This document shows, piece after piece, positions 50,274 to 57,048 of a stretch of 64,000 bases of DNA. Source of the DNA: Dehalococcoidia bacterium. Its GTDB lineage: Bacteria; Chloroflexota; Dehalococcoidia; UBA2979. Location of the stretch: contig OZ253555.1 of assembly GCA_965262725.1 (NCBI GenBank), positions 3,424,001 through 3,488,000 on the forward strand, written 5' to 3'. The position numbers and the translations under genes are program-made. Positions within the stretch are counted from its first letter, which is position 1. Each line of letters begins with the position of its first letter. Below the pieces are notes generated by a model that was not told where the DNA came from, made no database searches, and worked only from the letters and a program-made list of their open reading frames with translations.

Positions 50274-51155
50274 TCAGTCGAACTCCAGCGGCAGCGACGG
50301 ATCGGCGGCGTACTCCGACATCGAGGCGTCATAGACCGCGACGTCCTCGTAGCCCAGGAGCGAGAGGACGAAGGCGTCGTTGGACGCGGCGATGCCGCCC
50401 CCGCAGTACGTGACCACGCGCTGCGTGTGGTGCGCCCCCGCCTCTTCGAAGAGCGGCGCCAGCTCCTCCGCCGGGCGGTAGAGGCCGGTCTGGGGGTCGG
50501 TCAGCTCCATCGCCGGCACGTTGGTCGCGCGGGGGATGTGTCCGGCACGCCCGTAGGCTCGGCCGCCGTCGGCGCCCGAGTGCTGCTCCCGCCCGAGGGC
50601 GTTGATGAGGCAACTCCCGCCCCCGCCGCCCGACTCGACGAACGCGCGGACCTCGGCCAGGTCGGCGAAGCGGGCCGGGTCGGCGGTCGGCGTGAAGGTC
50701 GTGGGCGCGTACGCCGCCTCCCCCGTCGAGACGGGCCGGCCCTCGGCCGTCCAGCGACGCCAGCCGCCGTCGAGGACGGCCGCGCCCTCGCAGCCCATCG
50801 AGCGGAACATCCACCACAGCCTCGCCGCCCACGCCGAGCCCGAGCGGTCGTAGAGGACCAAGGTCGACGACTCCGAGATGCCGTGCCGTCCGGCCGCCGC
50901 TGCGAACGCCCCGGCCGAGGGCATCATGAAGCGCAGGCGGTGGTCGTTGTCTGAGAAGTCGGCCTGCAGGTCGAGGAAGGCCGCCCCGGGGATGTGTCCC
51001 GACTCATACTCCGCCCGTCCCGACTCGACGCGGTAGCCACCACCCTCCTGGGGACGCAGGAAGACGGTCGTCTCGAAGACGCACACGTCGTCGTCCTCCA
51101 CGTGCTCCGCCAGCCACTCGGTCGACACGAGGAACTCTGGATGCGCGAATGCCAT
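50274..51155 (-). CDS. Two-domain sulfurtransferase (rhodanese)
   Basis: GHIPGA, AARLWW, YCGGG, YDASMSEY. Confidence 0.92.
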   Translation of the reverse strand: MAFAHPEFLVSTEWLAEHVEDDDVCVFETTVFLRPQEGGGYRVESGRAEYESGHIPGAAFLDLQADFSDNDHRLRFMMPSAGAFAAAAGRHGISESSTLVLYDRSGSAWAARLWWMFRSMGCEGAAVLDGGWRRWTAEGRPVSTGEAAYAPTTFTPTADPARFADLAEVRAFVESGGGGGSCLINALGREQHSGADGGRAYGRAGHIPRATNVPAMELTDPQTGLYRPAEELAPLFEEAGAHHTQRVVTYCGGGIAASNDAFVLSLLGYEDVAVYDASMSEYAADPSLPLEFD

Positions 51156-51258
51156 GGTCAACTCCAGCCGGCGCGGGCCTGCGGTGAGAAGGCCGGTTCG
51201 CGGTCTAGTATCCCCATCCCGCGGACCGTCCGCGATCGCTTTCGGCCGGAGCGGGAGT

Positions 51259-51356
51259 CTACTCGCTCGCCGCCGCCTCGCGCAGCCGCCCGAGATCGAT
51301 GCTCTGCATCGTCAGCAGCACCTCCATGACGCGATCGGGCGCGATCGCCAGCAGCT
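51259..51356 (-). pseudogene. 3' half of the VOC-family gene split by IS110
   Basis: LLAIAPDRVMEVLLTMQSIDLGRLREAAASE* continues in frame from ...WQVVSAVPGE at 56581. Confidence 0.8.
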
Positions 51357-51364
51357 AATGGGAG

Positions 51365-51580
51365 CCGAACCAGAGGACCAGAGCGATCTGGGAGGATGGT
51401 TCCGGACCCGCCAGCCGGAGAGCATTACCAGTAGCTGAGGCGCTTGCGACCTCCAAGGGGAGACCGTGCCCCGGCTGGTTCGTTCGGGCCTGCGATGCAC
51501 TGATGGGGTGTCGTGCCGGTAGAGCACCGTGCCATTAGCTCGTTGCGGAGCAGCCCGGCGGGGCCAGCCAGCCAGGTGGG
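51365..51580 (+). ncRNA. Bridge RNA of element A (target- and donor-binding loops); ends approximate
   Basis: Stem 51411-51418/51471-51478 encloses CCAGTAGCT and GGGGAG; second loop contains ATGGGGTGTC and CCATTAG. Confidence 0.85.
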
Positions 51581-51598
51581 ACAGGAAGGGAGCACGGG

Positions 51599-52387
51599 TT
51601 GACGGTGTACGTGGGGGACGACTGGTCCGAGGACCATCACGACGTCCACGTCATGAACGAGGAGGGCGAGAGCCTCGAGGCGAAGCGACTCCCCGAGGGA
51701 GCGGAGGGCATGACCGCCCTCCACGCCCTGCTCGCCGAACACGCACAGGACGCCGGCCAGGTCGTGGTCGGCATCGAGACCGACCGCGGCCCGTGGGTCG
51801 CAGCGCTCATCGGCGCGGGCTACCGGGTCTACGCCATCAACCCGCGGGTGGCGTCCCTCTACCGCGAGCGCCACCAGGTCGGCGGCGGGAAGTCGGACCG
51901 GGGCGATGCGCGCATGCTCGCCAACCTCGTCCGCACCGACAGCCACAACCACCGGCCGGTCGCGGGCGACAGCGCCCTCGCCTCCGCCGTGCAGGTGCGT
52001 GCCCGCGCCCAGCAGCAGCTGGTCTGGAATCGCACCCGCGAGAGCAACCGACTGCGCAGCGCGCTGCTGCAGTACTTCCCGGCCACACTCCAGGCCTTCC
52101 CCGACCTCACGCATCCCGATGCGCTCTCGGTGCTAGCCGTCGCCCCGGACCCGCTCGCAGCGGCGAAGCTGACGCGGGCGCAGATCCGTGCGGCGCTCAG
52201 GCGCGGGGGCCGCAAGCGCAACCTGGACACGCGGACGGAGGAGATCCACGAGAAGCTCCGCCTCCGCACGCTCCACGTCGCGCCCGTCCTCACCGAGGCG
52301 TTCGCCGACAGCGTGCTCGTCCAGGTTGCCCAGCTCCAGGAGATCAACCGGCAGCTCGAGGGACTGGAGTCGAAGCTGGCCCCGTCT
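51599..52387 (+). pseudogene. IS110 recombinase A, N-terminal part (DEDD RuvC-like domain)
   Basis: YVGDDW, GIETD, KSDRGDA; interrupted at ...KLAPS. Confidence 0.92.
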
Positions 52388-52396
52388 ACCGACTAA

Positions 52397-53836
52397 CTAC
52401 ACCGTCGCCAAACCTGTGATCGGCGGTCCGGGAGCTCCGGTTCCATCCGCTTCGTGGCCTCCGAGCGGCACCAGCTGGTAGCCGAGCTTCCTGGCCCTGC
52501 GTCTCGCGTTGCGGAGGGCTCTCTCGTGGTGCTGCGCCTCGTAGTACTCGGCTCCGGCGTCCGTGTACCCGTGTCCGTACTTCAGGCTCGAGTAGATGAT
52601 CCTCGCCAGCTTGTGAGCCGTCGCAGTGATGGCCTTGGCTGGCCCCAGCTGCGCCTTCTTCCTCCGCAGGAACGCCCCCAGGGCGCTGTCGGAGCGGTGA
52701 AGACCGAAGGCGGCAAGACGCAGGGCCGCTGCTGCCCGGTTCGCCGACGGCGTGGTCCGGGAGCTGATGACCTTGCCTCCGGTGACGCGGTTGTTCGGGC
52801 TCAGGCCCAACCACGATGCGAAGTGCTTCGGGGTTTCCCAGCGGCTCATGTCCACTCCGACCTCGCTGACGACCTTCAGCGCCGTATGGGCGTCCACGCC
52901 ATCGATGCGCGTCAGGTCCACCCCCGTCATCCGGTAGAGATGGCTCCGCACGTCGAACGCCGGCGCATTCTTGGCGCGCTTCGACCGCTTGGGCTTCCCG
53001 AGAGGCGGCCGGGGGTCGCCGGAATCGTCCCACTCCTCCAGTAGCGCCTCGAGCTTCCCGTCGCACTCGGCGATCTTGCCCTGGTACACCCGGTAGAGAT
53101 CCCGGGCCTGCGCCAGTTCGAAGAGGTGCTCCTCCCGCCAGTGCCCCTCCAGTGACCGGGCGATCATCGACGTGTCCGCCCGGATCCTCGGGTCACGCAG
53201 CTGCGCCAGCTTCACGGGGTCACGCTCGCCACCAATGACGGCATCAATGATGGCCAGTCCCGTCGCGCCGGTGATGTCGCTGATGACGTGCTGGAGCTTG
53301 ACGTTCATCTGGGTCAGGGCCTTCTGCATGTGCTGAACGTGTCTGGCCGCGTCCTCGACCAGCAGGGCTCGCTGCCGCATGTAGCTGCGCAGTCGGCGGA
53401 TATCCTCATCGGGACGGAAGGCTCCGGAGAGCAGCCCGTAGGTGTGAAGCTGCTGGATCCACTGGCTGTCCAGCACATCCGTCTTGCGGCCGGGCGCATT
53501 CTTGATGCCCCTCGGGTTCACCAACAGCACCTCGAATCCCCGCTCCTCCAGCACTCCGAAGAGCGGGATCCAGTACACCCCCGTCGACTCCAGCGCCACG
53601 GTCTCGATGCCGCACTCGGCCAACCAGTCCGCCAGGCGGTACAGGTCGCCCGTGAAAGCTGCGAACTCCCGCACCGGCGTATCGGAACGGTCCTCGGGGA
53701 CTGCCACGAAGTGGCTCTCGGCGCCCACATCGATCCCGGCCGCGTTCAGGTTCACCCGGGACAGCGCCGCGGGCAGTACCGGCGGATCGCCCCGCGTTCC
53801 GTCGGCGCGCCGGGCACTCTCGCCTCGTGTCTCCAT
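52397..53836 (-). CDS. IS110 recombinase B (479 aa), copy 1
   Basis: AGIDVG, ALESTGVYW, RKTDVLDS, FASWLGLSP; ATG follows a purine-rich RBS. Confidence 0.93.
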   Translation of the reverse strand: METRGESARRADGTRGDPPVLPAALSRVNLNAAGIDVGAESHFVAVPEDRSDTPVREFAAFTGDLYRLADWLAECGIETVALESTGVYWIPLFGVLEERGFEVLLVNPRGIKNAPGRKTDVLDSQWIQQLHTYGLLSGAFRPDEDIRRLRSYMRQRALLVEDAARHVQHMQKALTQMNVKLQHVISDITGATGLAIIDAVIGGERDPVKLAQLRDPRIRADTSMIARSLEGHWREEHLFELAQARDLYRVYQGKIAECDGKLEALLEEWDDSGDPRPPLGKPKRSKRAKNAPAFDVRSHLYRMTGVDLTRIDGVDAHTALKVVSEVGVDMSRWETPKHFASWLGLSPNNRVTGGKVISSRTTPSANRAAAALRLAAFGLHRSDSALGAFLRRKKAQLGPAKAITATAHKLARIIYSSLKYGHGYTDAGAEYYEAQHHERALRNARRRARKLGYQLVPLGGHEADGTGAPGPPITGLATV

Positions 53837-53852
53837 CCTCTCGCCCCCTCCC

Positions 53853-54022
53853 CCACAGCGTGGGCGTGTGACCGGAGGGAGCCACGACCAGACCGACACT
53901 CTACCGAACGGGATCGCCCCGACGGGACGTCACCAGTGATGCAGTCGCAGGGCTCCCGGACCATGCTTTTGAACGGGCAGATCGCACCAACGATGTACCG
54001 GCCTCGGCCCGGTCATCACGCC
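53853..54022 (-). ncRNA. Bridge-RNA-like structured region of element B, copy 1
   Basis: Same sequence as 55568-55737. Confidence 0.7.
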
Positions 54023-54111
54023 TCGCCGCGACTATACATCGCCGCTCGGCCCACCCCAGTTAGTGGCTTGCTGCACCGCCCGGCCGCCGGGGGTGGGGTG
54101 CTACCGACTAA

Positions 54112-55551
54112 CTACACCGTCGCCAAACCTGTGATCGGCGGTCCGGGAGCTCCGGTTCCATCCGCTTCGTGGCCTCCGAGCGGCACCAGCTGGTAGCCGA
54201 GCTTCCTGGCCCTGCGTCTCGCGTTGCGGAGGGCTCTCTCGTGGTGCTGCGCCTCGTAGTACTCGGCTCCGGCGTCCGTGTACCCGTGTCCGTACTTCAG
54301 GCTCGAGTAGATGATCCTCGCCAGCTTGTGAGCCGTCGCAGTGATGGCCTTGGCTGGCCCCAGCTGCGCCTTCTTCCTCCGCAGGAACGCCCCCAGGGCG
54401 CTGTCGGAGCGGTGAAGACCGAAGGCGGCAAGACGCAGGGCCGCTGCTGCCCGGTTCGCCGACGGCGTGGTCCGGGAGCTGATGACCTTGCCTCCGGTGA
54501 CGCGGTTGTTCGGGCTCAGGCCCAACCACGATGCGAAGTGCTTCGGGGTTTCCCAGCGGCTCATGTCCACTCCGACCTCGCTGACGACCTTCAGCGCCGT
54601 ATGGGCGTCCACGCCATCGATGCGCGTCAGGTCCACCCCCGTCATCCGGTAGAGATGGCTCCGCACGTCGAACGCCGGCGCATTCTTGGCGCGCTTCGAC
54701 CGCTTGGGCTTCCCGAGAGGCGGCCGGGGGTCGCCGGAATCGTCCCACTCCTCCAGTAGCGCCTCGAGCTTCCCGTCGCACTCGGCGATCTTGCCCTGGT
54801 ACACCCGGTAGAGATCCCGGGCCTGCGCCAGTTCGAAGAGGTGCTCCTCCCGCCAGTGCCCCTCCAGTGACCGGGCGATCATCGACGTGTCCGCCCGGAT
54901 CCTCGGGTCACGCAGCTGCGCCAGCTTCACGGGGTCACGCTCGCCACCAATGACGGCATCAATGATGGCCAGTCCCGTCGCGCCGGTGATGTCGCTGATG
55001 ACGTGCTGGAGCTTGACGTTCATCTGGGTCAGGGCCTTCTGCATGTGCTGAACGTGTCTGGCCGCGTCCTCGACCAGCAGGGCTCGCTGCCGCATGTAGC
55101 TGCGCAGTCGGCGGATATCCTCATCGGGACGGAAGGCTCCGGAGAGCAGCCCGTAGGTGTGAAGCTGCTGGATCCACTGGCTGTCCAGCACATCCGTCTT
55201 GCGGCCGGGCGCATTCTTGATGCCCCTCGGGTTCACCAACAGCACCTCGAATCCCCGCTCCTCCAGCACTCCGAAGAGCGGGATCCAGTACACCCCCGTC
55301 GACTCCAGCGCCACGGTCTCGATGCCGCACTCGGCCAACCAGTCCGCCAGGCGGTACAGGTCGCCCGTGAAAGCTGCGAACTCCCGCACCGGCGTATCGG
55401 AACGGTCCTCGGGGACTGCCACGAAGTGGCTCTCGGCGCCCACATCGATCCCGGCCGCGTTCAGGTTCACCCGGGACAGCGCCGCGGGCAGTACCGGCGG
55501 ATCGCCCCGCGTTCCGTCGGCGCGCCGGGCACTCTCGCCTCGTGTCTCCAT
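54112..55551 (-). CDS. IS110 recombinase B (479 aa), copy 2
   Basis: Translation identical to copy 1. Confidence 0.92.
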   Translation of the reverse strand: METRGESARRADGTRGDPPVLPAALSRVNLNAAGIDVGAESHFVAVPEDRSDTPVREFAAFTGDLYRLADWLAECGIETVALESTGVYWIPLFGVLEERGFEVLLVNPRGIKNAPGRKTDVLDSQWIQQLHTYGLLSGAFRPDEDIRRLRSYMRQRALLVEDAARHVQHMQKALTQMNVKLQHVISDITGATGLAIIDAVIGGERDPVKLAQLRDPRIRADTSMIARSLEGHWREEHLFELAQARDLYRVYQGKIAECDGKLEALLEEWDDSGDPRPPLGKPKRSKRAKNAPAFDVRSHLYRMTGVDLTRIDGVDAHTALKVVSEVGVDMSRWETPKHFASWLGLSPNNRVTGGKVISSRTTPSANRAAAALRLAAFGLHRSDSALGAFLRRKKAQLGPAKAITATAHKLARIIYSSLKYGHGYTDAGAEYYEAQHHERALRNARRRARKLGYQLVPLGGHEADGTGAPGPPITGLATV

Positions 55552-55567
55552 CCTCTCGCCCCCTCCC

Positions 55568-55737
55568 CCACAGCGTGGGCGTGTGACCGGAGGGAGCCAC
55601 GACCAGACCGACACTCTACCGAACGGGATCGCCCCGACGGGACGTCACCAGTGATGCAGTCGCAGGGCTCCCGGACCATGCTTTTGAACGGGCAGATCGC
55701 ACCAACGATGTACCGGCCTCGGCCCGGTCATCACGCC
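55568..55737 (-). ncRNA. Bridge-RNA-like structured region of element B, copy 2; ends approximate
   Basis: Closing stem GGCGTG-A-TGACCGG/CCGGTCA-CACGCC, stem GGGAGCC/GGCTCCC, guides TCAAAAG and TCGGTAG; -10-like TATAGT at 55746-55751. Confidence 0.72.
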
Positions 55738-55817
55738 TCGCCGCGACTATACATCGCCGCTCGGCCCACCCCAGTTAGTGGCTTGCTGCACCGCCCGGCC
55801 GCCGGGGGTGGGGTGCT

Positions 55818-56255
55818 TTTGAGGAGCACCCGGACGCCGCGATTTACCTGTCGATGCCGGGCCTGGGGCCCGTGCTCGGCGCCCGGGTGCTGGGCGAGTT
55901 CGGGGATGACCCCGAACGCTACGAGTCCGCGAAGTCTCGCAGGAACTACGCGGGCACGTCGCCGCTCACCATAGCATCGGGGCGGAAGCGGACGGTCACC
56001 GCGCGCCACGTGCGGAACCGGCGCCTCTACGACGCGGTACACATGTGGGCGTTCTGCTCGCTCCAGGCGAGTCCCGGGTGCCGGGCGTACTACCAGCAGC
56101 GGCAAGCGCTGGGCGACGGGCACCACCAGGCGCTGCGCGCCCTCGCCAACCGCCTGGTCGCGTTCCTGCACGGCTGCCTGAGCACGCGTCGGCTCTACGA
56201 CGAGGAGGCGGCCTGGGGCAGCCTGAAGACTGAGCCTGCCGAGCTCGCCGCCTGA
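55818..56255 (+). pseudogene. IS110 recombinase A, C-terminal part (Tnp20 domain)
   Basis: FEEHPDAAIYLSMPGLG...YAGTSPLTIASG...ALRALANRL, in frame with 51599-52387. Confidence 0.92.
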
Positions 56256-56580
56256 CGGAGGTCGTTGAGCGCCTCGGCGGGCCCGGACTCATCCAGGGTC
56301 TGGAGCTCGTTGAGGGCGCAACACGGCGCGACGAGTCCCTGCACACCCCGATCACGGACGCCGGCAGCGGTCGGTGAGCCACCGCATGTCCGCGAAGCTG
56401 AGACGCAGCTCACGCCGGCCAGGACCATCCTCTCCGGCGGCGTCGACATCGGAACACCGCCGCGATCACGGCTCTAGCACGGCGCTCCGGCTGCTCACGA
56501 TCTCCTTCGCCTCGCGCACCCGACGCCCCGATCCGCTGCCCGGGTGGGGGCGCCCCTTGCGCGTTACGGACATGGGGTGT

Positions 56581-56909
56581 CTCCCCGGGCACCGCGGAGA
56601 CGACCTGCCAGGAAACGCCGAACTCCTCCTCGAGCCCGCCGCACTGGCCGGGGGCGCCGCCCTCAAAGAGCCGCTTCCGGAAGTGGTCGATCTCCTCGTG
56701 CGTCGTGCAGGTGACGACGAAGGAGATCGCCGGCGTGAACTCACCCATCGGACCACCGTCGGGGGCCTCGAAGCGATGTCCGTCAACCTCCAGCCCCGGC
56801 ACCGCGCCGACCCCGGCGGAGCACCACGGGATCTCCGAGCCGGAGAGGATGCTCGATCCGGGGAAGACGCCGGCGCAGAACTCGGCGGCAGCGGTCCGCG
56901 TCCGGGCAT
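56581..56909 (-). pseudogene. 5' half of a degenerate VOC-family gene
   Basis: DGGPMGEFTPAISFVVTC..EEIDHF..GQCGGLEEEFGVSWQVV; conserved Trp positions look mutated; start not recognisable. Confidence 0.75.
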
Positions 56910-57048
56910 CAGGGCGTCCGCCGCGGCGCCCGCACTCTCCGTCGCTGCCCCTCGACTCGATGGGTGCGGGCGCTCCGCTGCGGGCGGCCGCTATGGTGGC
57001 GACGCGGGCGGATGTCACATCCTGTCGGACGGCCGTCGGAGGCGGGCG

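Follow-up and report, generated by a model that had tools for sequence, protein, structure and literature searches.

Among insertion sequences (IS) of the IS110 family, the systems closest to the one described here are IS621, which uses a bridge RNA, and the IS110- and IS1111-type elements for which seekRNAs have been described. We compare with them element B, a 1715-bp IS110-family IS located in a 64,000-nucleotide stretch of a Dehalococcoidia bacterium genome (assembly GCA_965262725.1, contig OZ253555.1, positions 3,424,001 to 3,488,000; hereafter the window, numbered from its first base). In the main texts on IS621, each loop of the bridge RNA comprises a stem, a 5' guide strand, a stem-loop and a 3' guide strand (Hiraizumi 2024, PMC11208158), and the 3' guides pair with the top (gene-sense) strand (PMC11208160, PMC11208158). 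Core and downstream flank are read by the right target guide, whose final AG reaches G80, and the handshake bases at positions 81-82 then pair with the last two left-donor bases (donor positions 6-7). Of the two donor halves, the left is located in the right end of the element and the right in its left end; the T of the core is near-invariant, unlike the C (PMC11208158). The left guides are long and have the gene-sense sequence of the left flank and of the right end, and the text of the same paper stresses that bridge-RNA structures are diverse (Durrant 2024, PMC11208160).

The main text on seekRNAs places the complement of the top strand 5' of the bottom-strand match in IS1111-type elements, and gives the reverse order for ISEc21, an IS110-type element whose seekRNA was experimentally validated (Siddiquee 2024, PMC11187229). 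The text of a preprint catalogue presents 86 covariance models and 32,190 bridge RNAs, many of which deviate from the IS621 shape, with a total of 12 to 40 programmable nucleotides (bioRxiv 10.64898/2026.10.21.760802). Two further preprints also report, in their main texts, complete IS110 modules duplicated in tandem (n = 437) and cargo repeated in tandem (bioRxiv 10.64898/2026.08.14.744561, 10.1101/2025.10.25.684509).

A predicted bridge RNA in the left end of element B

Element B forms a head-to-tail dimer (52386-55815) within the IS110 transposase gene of a second IS, element A. The non-coding region of B lies upstream of its recombinase gene, and its right end is 11 nt beyond the stop codon. 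Our analysis indicates that the left non-coding end very probably encodes a bridge (seek) RNA, about 160 nt long, that serves B's own IS110-family recombinase, with 3' guides that read the strand antisense to the recombinase gene. The parts of this RNA, given for the copy next to the insertion junction, are as follows.

55578-55737, minus strand: bridge RNA core, 160 nt, from the 5' strand to the 3' strand of the closing stem P1 (RNAalifold consensus)
55724-55737, minus strand: P1 5' strand, GGCGUG(A)UGACCGG (RNAalifold and pair counts)
55578-55590, minus strand: P1 3' strand, CCGGUCACACGCC (RNAalifold and pair counts)
55674-55718, minus strand: module 1 (target-binding), with stem P2 (55714-55718 with 55674-55678), a variable 5' segment (55705-55713) and an inner stem-loop (55689-55704)
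55681-55687, minus strand: guide 1, UCAAAAG, equal to the gene-sense upstream flank plus core and complementary to plus-strand CTTTTGA at 55816-55822
55679-55680, minus strand: handshake-like dinucleotide CA, directly after guide 1, equal to the first two bases of the element's left end
55592-55672, minus strand: module 2 (donor-binding), with stem P3 (55659-55672 with 55592-55603), a conserved 5' segment (55651-55658) and an inner stem-loop (55624-55650)
55616-55622, minus strand: guide 2, UCGGUAG, equal to the element's last five bases (gene sense) plus core
55746-55751, minus strand: TATAGT, a -10-like hexamer 8 nt upstream of P1

A preliminary description of this DNA had noted CTTTTGA at 55681-55687 and 55816-55822, and CTACCGA at 55616-55622, 52386-52392 and 54101-54107; all of these positions were confirmed by direct reading. 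In the recombinase (minus-strand) sense, guides UCAAAAG and UCGGUAG come after GCGAUCUGCCCGU and GCGAUCCCGU, respectively. They lie in two homologous modules. In each, an outer stem encloses an inner stem-loop with a single strand on its 5' and on its 3' side, and the 3' strand carries a 7-nt guide made up of five variable bases and AG.

The fold was examined in an alignment of 44 sequences. RNAalifold recovered the closing stem, the module-1 stem and the UGG(U)G-CCCG pairing beneath each inner hairpin. The inner stem-loop base UGG(U)G/CCCG was invariant in both modules; in the window UGGUGAC pairs with GAUCCCG, and four of these six pairs were present in 44/44 sequences. The 13-bp closing stem claimed in the preliminary description was present (55724-55737 with 55578-55590, one bulged A), with 11 of its 13 pairs changing on both sides, and P2 was 99.1% paired with A-U/G-U/G-C exchange. 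For the complete 45-pair structure, 84.9% of cells were paired and 25 pairs changed on both sides compared with 14.1 in shuffles (0/500 shuffles as high), while slid versions of the structure all scored far lower. These figures refer to a structure derived from the window sequence, for which mid-P1 and inner P3 are out of register in most relatives and hold many unpaired cells. G-U pairs, which are compatible only with a recombinase-sense transcript, were frequent (e.g. 14/44 in P2).

Guide matching across relatives

Analysis of the window by itself was unremarkable. The 7-mers were no rarer than chance (CTTTTGA, 3 occurrences versus 0.97 expected, 6/100 shuffles reaching 3; CTACCGA, 8 versus 4.73 expected, 12/100 shuffles reaching 8), and the single-sequence fold of 55552-55822 gave z = -1.21. 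The significance of the guides thus rests on their position and on comparison with relatives. In a class-level sample, the recombinase was found in 10/401 genomes at E values up to 1e-40, the window's own genome included. A pattern scan of 185,579 species' genomes returned at least 600 stretches, at least 535 of them encoding a relative; the best 80 of these were used, nearly all from Dehalococcoidia metagenome-assembled genomes, and together with earlier loci they gave 89 loci. Both modules were present in the recombinase sense in 76/89 loci, following a shared plan of CAUUGGUG, a short hairpin, CCCG plus one base, five variable bases and AG. The other 13 loci fell outside the motif set (L012, L023, L024, L034, L035, L049, L051, L063, L068, L083, L087, L091 and L099), and several of them were truncated or degenerate.

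For guide 1, the left end of each element was placed by its own conserved motif, independently of the guide. Comparison of guide 1 with the seven bases ending at the insertion point revealed exact identity in 35/59 loci, one mismatch in 15 and two to four mismatches in 9. Among 40 unique pairs the mean was 0.95 mismatches compared with 3.27 after shuffling (0/10,000 shuffles as low). For guide 2, the right end was placed by GTTA(G/C/A)N5A(G/A). Guide 2 was identical to the element's last seven bases in 60/72 loci, and 22 unique pairs had a mean of 0.77 mismatches compared with 2.33 after shuffling (0/10,000 shuffles as low). The loci held 34 distinct guide-1 and 17 distinct guide-2 sequences, and since these track their own flank or end, the matches reflect reprogramming and not conservation. 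The dinucleotide after guide 1 equalled the element's first two bases with a single mismatch in 59 loci; it was CA/CA in most loci and covaried in the others, being UA/TA in L017 and CG/CG in L092 and L093. Covariation of guides with flanks and ends was the test that the preliminary description had itself proposed for its identification of a bridge RNA; the identification is borne out, and the interpretation given there is right in the main. Taken together, these data lead us to conclude that the bridge RNA is real, and that it is a distinct form of a known system and not a new kind of system.

The same two-module RNA was found outside the Dehalococcoidia, in a relative at 53% identity on an enterobacterial plasmid and Escherichia coli chromosomes (L101 and L103-L105). 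In this relative the guides are AAAAAAA and UCAGGAA and the core is AA (antisense TT); its insertions lie at the slippery site TTAAAAAAG within transposase genes of the IS3 family. A match to it was present in 546/5426 complete E. coli genomes, in 74 at full length. Module motifs were not found upstream of the match on a Paraburkholderia plasmid (L102).

The 5' segments of the two modules behaved differently from the 3' guides, as the preliminary description had anticipated in stating that 7-nt right (3') guides dominate. The module-2 5' segment (GCAUCAU/C) was conserved among relatives and matched no donor end. It had no match to the left end of the window's subfamily, and although the GGCAU within it is similar to ATGCC in the left end of the main subfamily, the two are 7 nt out of register. 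The module-1 5' segment was variable, with a conserved C that aligned to the core C in 42/43 pairs. Compared with the other flank in the complementary sense, it matched at 124/301 positions versus 106 in shuffles, a weak signal (3/2000 shuffles as high), and by eye the registers of a left target guide disagreed between loci. By analogy with IS621, the left guides would be vestigial, so that only one side of each site would be read. Two specific 5' guides had been proposed for the window, GGTG-a-C and CGGT-a-C, and both were rejected: GGUGAC forms the inner stem-loop's invariant base, and CGGUAC lies in a different register from the weak family-wide left-guide signal.

Strand logic and target use

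The remaining features of the locus, on which the strand assignment and the target comparison draw, are listed here.

54101-55815, minus strand: element B, tandem dimer copy 2; 1715-bp unit including one CT core (54101-54102), identical repeat unit
52386-54100, minus strand: element B, tandem dimer copy 1; identical to copy 2 at all 1715 positions, its RNA features being those of copy 2 at positions 1715 bp lower, on the minus strand
54112-55551, minus strand: recombinase gene, 479 aa from ATG; stop codon 54112-54114
55774-55778: subterminal inverted repeat, left-end copy, CUAAC in gene sense, about 40 nt inside the left end and upstream of the putative promoter
54108-54112: subterminal inverted repeat, right-end copy, GTTAG in gene sense, adjoining the bases matched by guide 2
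55816-55822, plus strand: insertion junction, CT core (55816-55817) plus five target bases
51599-52385, plus strand: element A transposase, N-terminal part, cut by B (Pfam DEDD_Tnp_IS110, 2.6e-35)
55818-56255, plus strand: element A transposase, C-terminal part (Pfam Transposase_20, 2.5e-14)

The ends of B are set by three insertion sites. CT also occurs at 52386-52387 and at the dimer joint 54101-54102; the CT common to target and element is exactly 2 bp, with different bases on either side, and the same short core therefore stands at both junctions and at the joined ends, without other duplication. The subterminal repeat is 7 bp in the window's copy, with a covarying part of 5 bp: in the GTTAx/xTAAC pair the variable base was complementary in 64/67 loci (50 G/C, 13 C/G and 1 A/T).

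Both guides carry gene-sense sequence and are hence complementary to the antisense strand of the recombinase gene; the upstream flank is read by guide 1, the right end by guide 2. The core is A(G/A) in gene sense, in the window and in the relatives at 53% identity, and (C/T)T on the antisense strand. The preliminary description had placed the CT core on the strand opposite the recombinase, and this stands as the reverse of the arrangement given in the main texts for IS621 (PMC11208160, PMC11208158). That (C/T)T is read only on the antisense strand fits the IS621 rule of a near-invariant second T. By analogy with IS621, the guides of B would be a right target guide, a handshake guide and a right donor guide pairing with the CT-bearing antisense strand; the RNA-DNA geometry would be kept, and the cassette of RNA gene and recombinase gene would be inverted between the ends relative to IS621. 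In favour of this inversion are the core, the handshake dinucleotide and the placement of the guides on the 3' side of the stem-loop.

The best-surviving alternative, which we regard as improbable, accepts the same bridge RNA but no inversion: the 7-mers would be left-type guides moved 3' of the inner stem-loop, with a core A[G/A] on the recombinase-sense strand. The long left guides of IS621 are likewise identical to the gene-sense left flank and right end according to the main text of PMC11208160, the ISEc21 non-coding region holds an 8-mer identical to its gene-sense right end, and the DNA facts are symmetric under such a relabelling; element A, moreover, appears with a non-CT core. The order of the parts speaks for the inversion instead. 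Guides 3' of the inner stem-loop, a core-pairing end and a covarying handshake-like dinucleotide reproduce the published IS621 order of right guide, core and handshake, the variable module-1 5' segment weakly matches the other flank in the complementary sense, and [C/T]T is obtained as the core sequence only if the antisense strand is read.

Examination of the 3.67-Mb host genome revealed four full copies of B, namely the dimer and two single copies. All three B sites are at the same position in copies of element A, where GGCC(C/G)CGT is followed by CT and then TTTGAGGAGC. CTTTTGA-like flanks at the other B copies were a further prediction of the preliminary description, and all three host sites carry CTTTTGA. 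B was present in all three A copies with a perfect CTTTTGA. The two empty A copies, at about 679086 and about 1915319 (outside the window), have CTCTTGA, one mismatch next to the core. The A copies were 92-96% alike and the B copies differed by 0, 3 and 4 bases in 1715; the A copies have thus diverged while the B copies are near-identical, and the B insertions are therefore separate and recent. In total the genome held 25 CTTTTGA sites: four guides inside B, three filled junctions and 18 empty sites.

Spread of a single A::B composite, by element A or by recombination and not by RNA guidance, would also place all three insertions at the same position of the same gene and leave 18 other perfect 7-mer sites empty. 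The A parts and B parts of such a composite would, however, diverge equally, which contrasts with 92-96% identity for A and 0-4/1715 differences for B; the mismatch that sets the two empty A copies apart from the filled ones falls directly beside the core, and relatives in other genomes follow the guide-flank rule at many different targets. We consider this explanation very unlikely. Scarcely credible is the further suggestion that the 7-mers match by chance and that the region is merely a structured 5' leader of the recombinase mRNA, for which the window's ordinary 7-mer counts and single-sequence fold can be cited, against the shuffling results for both guides across relatives and the 34 and 17 distinct guides that each track their own flank or end.

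Without B, element A is about 1.8 kb, with ends at about 51352 and about 56585, and five copies or part-copies of it occur in the genome. The Rfam family Ms_AS-4, an actinobacterial sRNA family, matches 55853-55934 on the minus strand (55.8 bits), antisense in the element A transposase gene; this match probably represents a conserved IS110 coding stretch rather than a separate sRNA.

Promoter, recombinase and stacking of elements

The preliminary description suggested that an internal promoter with the hexamer TATAGT, and not a junction promoter, drives the RNA. TAnnnT was found 60-70 nt upstream of guide 1 in 41/42 distinct relatives, with inner bases that vary as in a -10 box; from there to the closing stem the distance is 8-9 nt. 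On these sequence grounds, an internal promoter is plausible. By analogy, the RNA would probably be made from this promoter inside the left end and not from a circle-junction promoter; a resting copy of B could then supply RNA, unlike the IS621 junction promoter. Two RNA-library runs provided contigs only, mostly 90-95% alike and from relatives, with depths of 47 and 78 over 55635-55693. A 195-nt contig from run X20 covers 55566-55694, the stretch from module 2 to guide 1, with three differences and then diverges, and is probably from a sibling with another module 1.

The recombinase frame is open to 500 aa from an upstream GTG. The protein matched Pfam DEDD_Tnp_IS110 (3.1e-22) and Transposase_20 (7.4e-12), so that the N-terminal DEDD and C-terminal Tnp parts are both present, and scored 255 bits against NCBIfam NF033542 'IS110 family RNA-guided transposase' (cut-off 140). 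Its similarity to the IS621 protein is low (E = 7.7e-6). The IS621 DEDD residues align to D36, E83, D120 and D123, and the catalytic S241 of IS621 aligns with high posterior to T352 (codon 54496-54498, minus strand). Among relatives, the motif R(I/V)TGG had Thr in 82/88 motif matches and Ser (SGG) in 6, which are more distant members; six further loci had no match. The E. coli relative has Ser (SGG) at this position. Thr still keeps a hydroxyl, and given the recent spread of B, we infer that the Thr-bearing recombinase is active.

Guide 1 with its handshake (UCAAAAGCA) matched the filled junction at 9/9 positions and the empty target at 7/9. If only the right half of a target is read, the junction left after insertion would still match guide and handshake. 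A second circle could then insert at the left junction of the resident copy, and the product would be exactly the B-B dimer seen. One-sided reading would in this way explain the dimer and also head-to-tail arrays of siblings, an argument that again proceeds by analogy. The upstream flank was a sibling's right end in 8/54 loci (L031, L037, L038, L039, L056, L057, L067 and L088), the downstream flank was left-end-like in 3/54 (L029, L047 and L048), and guide 1 was identical to a sibling's guide 2 in 12/63. The window's copy was the only homodimer among the 54 loci.

Several points weigh against the reading of B as an inverted, RNA-guided system. First, 18 perfect CTTTTGA sites are without B (e.g. 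337236, 1850633 and 2028364, outside the window), 11 of them within one repeat, ggacaatCTTTTGAacccgattt; comparison of the three filled with the 18 empty sites showed that the base before the core and the base after the 7-mer both fail to discriminate. The seven bases are therefore not the whole of the specificity, being needed but seemingly not sufficient for targeting, or a sample of three events is too small. Second, a sigma-70 scan of 55450-55900 gave no full match at the junction or elsewhere and no -35 consensus, so that of the promoter claim the conserved -10-like box stands and a complete promoter does not. Third, the RNA-library contigs cannot show transcription, ends or strand, so the bridge RNA is a prediction from sequence, and contigs from run X1 end at the repeat borders of the tandem dimer, such that the reads give no verdict on the dimer. 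Fourth, a search of 51000-57000 against Rfam 15 (E up to 1) gave no match on the non-coding region and only the Ms_AS-4 match inside element A. Fifth, B has Thr where IS621 has its catalytic Ser. Finally, a quick look at four copies of element A, the boundaries of which are approximate, suggests a CA/CC dinucleotide at the ends and not CT; core rules would accordingly differ among IS110 clades, which weakens the [C/T]T argument, and the word 'inverted' itself presupposes homology of RNA layout between B and IS621.

Comparison with IS621, ISEc21 and IS1111-type elements

The comparisons in this section are with the main texts of the papers cited. B resembles IS621 in its DEDD and Tnp recombinase, in an RNA encoded upstream in the left end, and in the two homologous modules of that RNA. 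In both, a core-pairing AG closes the 3' guides and precedes a handshake dinucleotide, the two junctions carry a 2-nt core, and the RNA recognises the target and the element's own joined ends. B differs from IS621 in that its 3' guides read the upstream flank and right end, whereas those of IS621 read the downstream flank and left end; in left guides that are 8-9 nt in IS621 and apparently vestigial in B; in a 13-bp stem that closes both modules; in a -10-like box about 65 nt inside the left end, compared with a promoter at the junction in IS621; and in the Thr at the S241 position.

With respect to the preprint catalogue (bioRxiv 10.64898/2026.10.21.760802), the B family, with about 14-20 programmable nucleotides, would be at the low end of the range, and the catalogue's text makes no mention of reversed strand logic or one-sided reading. 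In the main texts covered, we found no statement of reversed logic with an upstream RNA, nor of Dehalococcoidia bridge RNAs; the B family may already be contained in the catalogue's covariance models or in the tables that supplement Durrant 2024. Compared with the reported tandem duplications of IS110 elements, the B family is distinguished by a junction that stays a full match to its only strong target guide.

Bridge recombinases are being engineered as programmable DNA-insertion tools, and their natural diversity bounds what can be engineered. If the IS621 module plan reads the other strand in B, the gene cassette would be free to change its orientation with respect to the recombination site. 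One-sided reading of 7 nt would represent a natural lower bound on pairing for site-specific insertion (3/3 perfect sites filled and 0/2 one-mismatch sites filled, in one gene family); it offers a mechanism for tandem and nested IS arrays and bears on off-target 'half-match' insertion. Thr for Ser at the nucleophile position of an element that appears from its sequence to be active is a testable point.

ISEc21 shares with B the upstream non-coding region and a target inside the transposase gene of another IS (IS3 family), and differs in having the opposite guide order according to its paper (PMC11187229). Simple k-mer matches at the ISEc21 locus (L106) failed to resolve the loops, and the polarity contrast therefore rests on the text of the papers. 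IS1111-type elements share the guide order of B, the reverse of that in ISEc21 and IS621, and also have a subterminal inverted repeat; reversed guide order as such is thus already published for IS1111-type seekRNAs (PMC11187229). In IS1111-type elements, however, a long right end downstream of the transposase encodes the RNA, whereas the RNA of B is encoded upstream; the proteins are 330-350 aa compared with 479 aa for B; and the subterminal repeats are 7-17 bp compared with 5-7 bp in B, where the left copy is about 40 nt inside the end (PMC11187229).

We put forward, tentatively and as a joint proposal that may well fail in one part or another, that the clade extending from Dehalococcoidia to Enterobacteriaceae represents a third configuration of the IS110 family. 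Its RNA would be upstream as in IS110, and its strand logic and subterminal repeat would be as in IS1111. One half-site would be read (5 + 2 nt plus a 2-nt handshake), and a filled junction would stay a full target, so that head-to-tail stacks could form behind an element's own copies and behind those siblings whose right end it has evolved to match, with Thr replacing the catalytic Ser in the Dehalococcoidia branch. The B family would then be a possible link between the IS110 and IS1111 arrangements.

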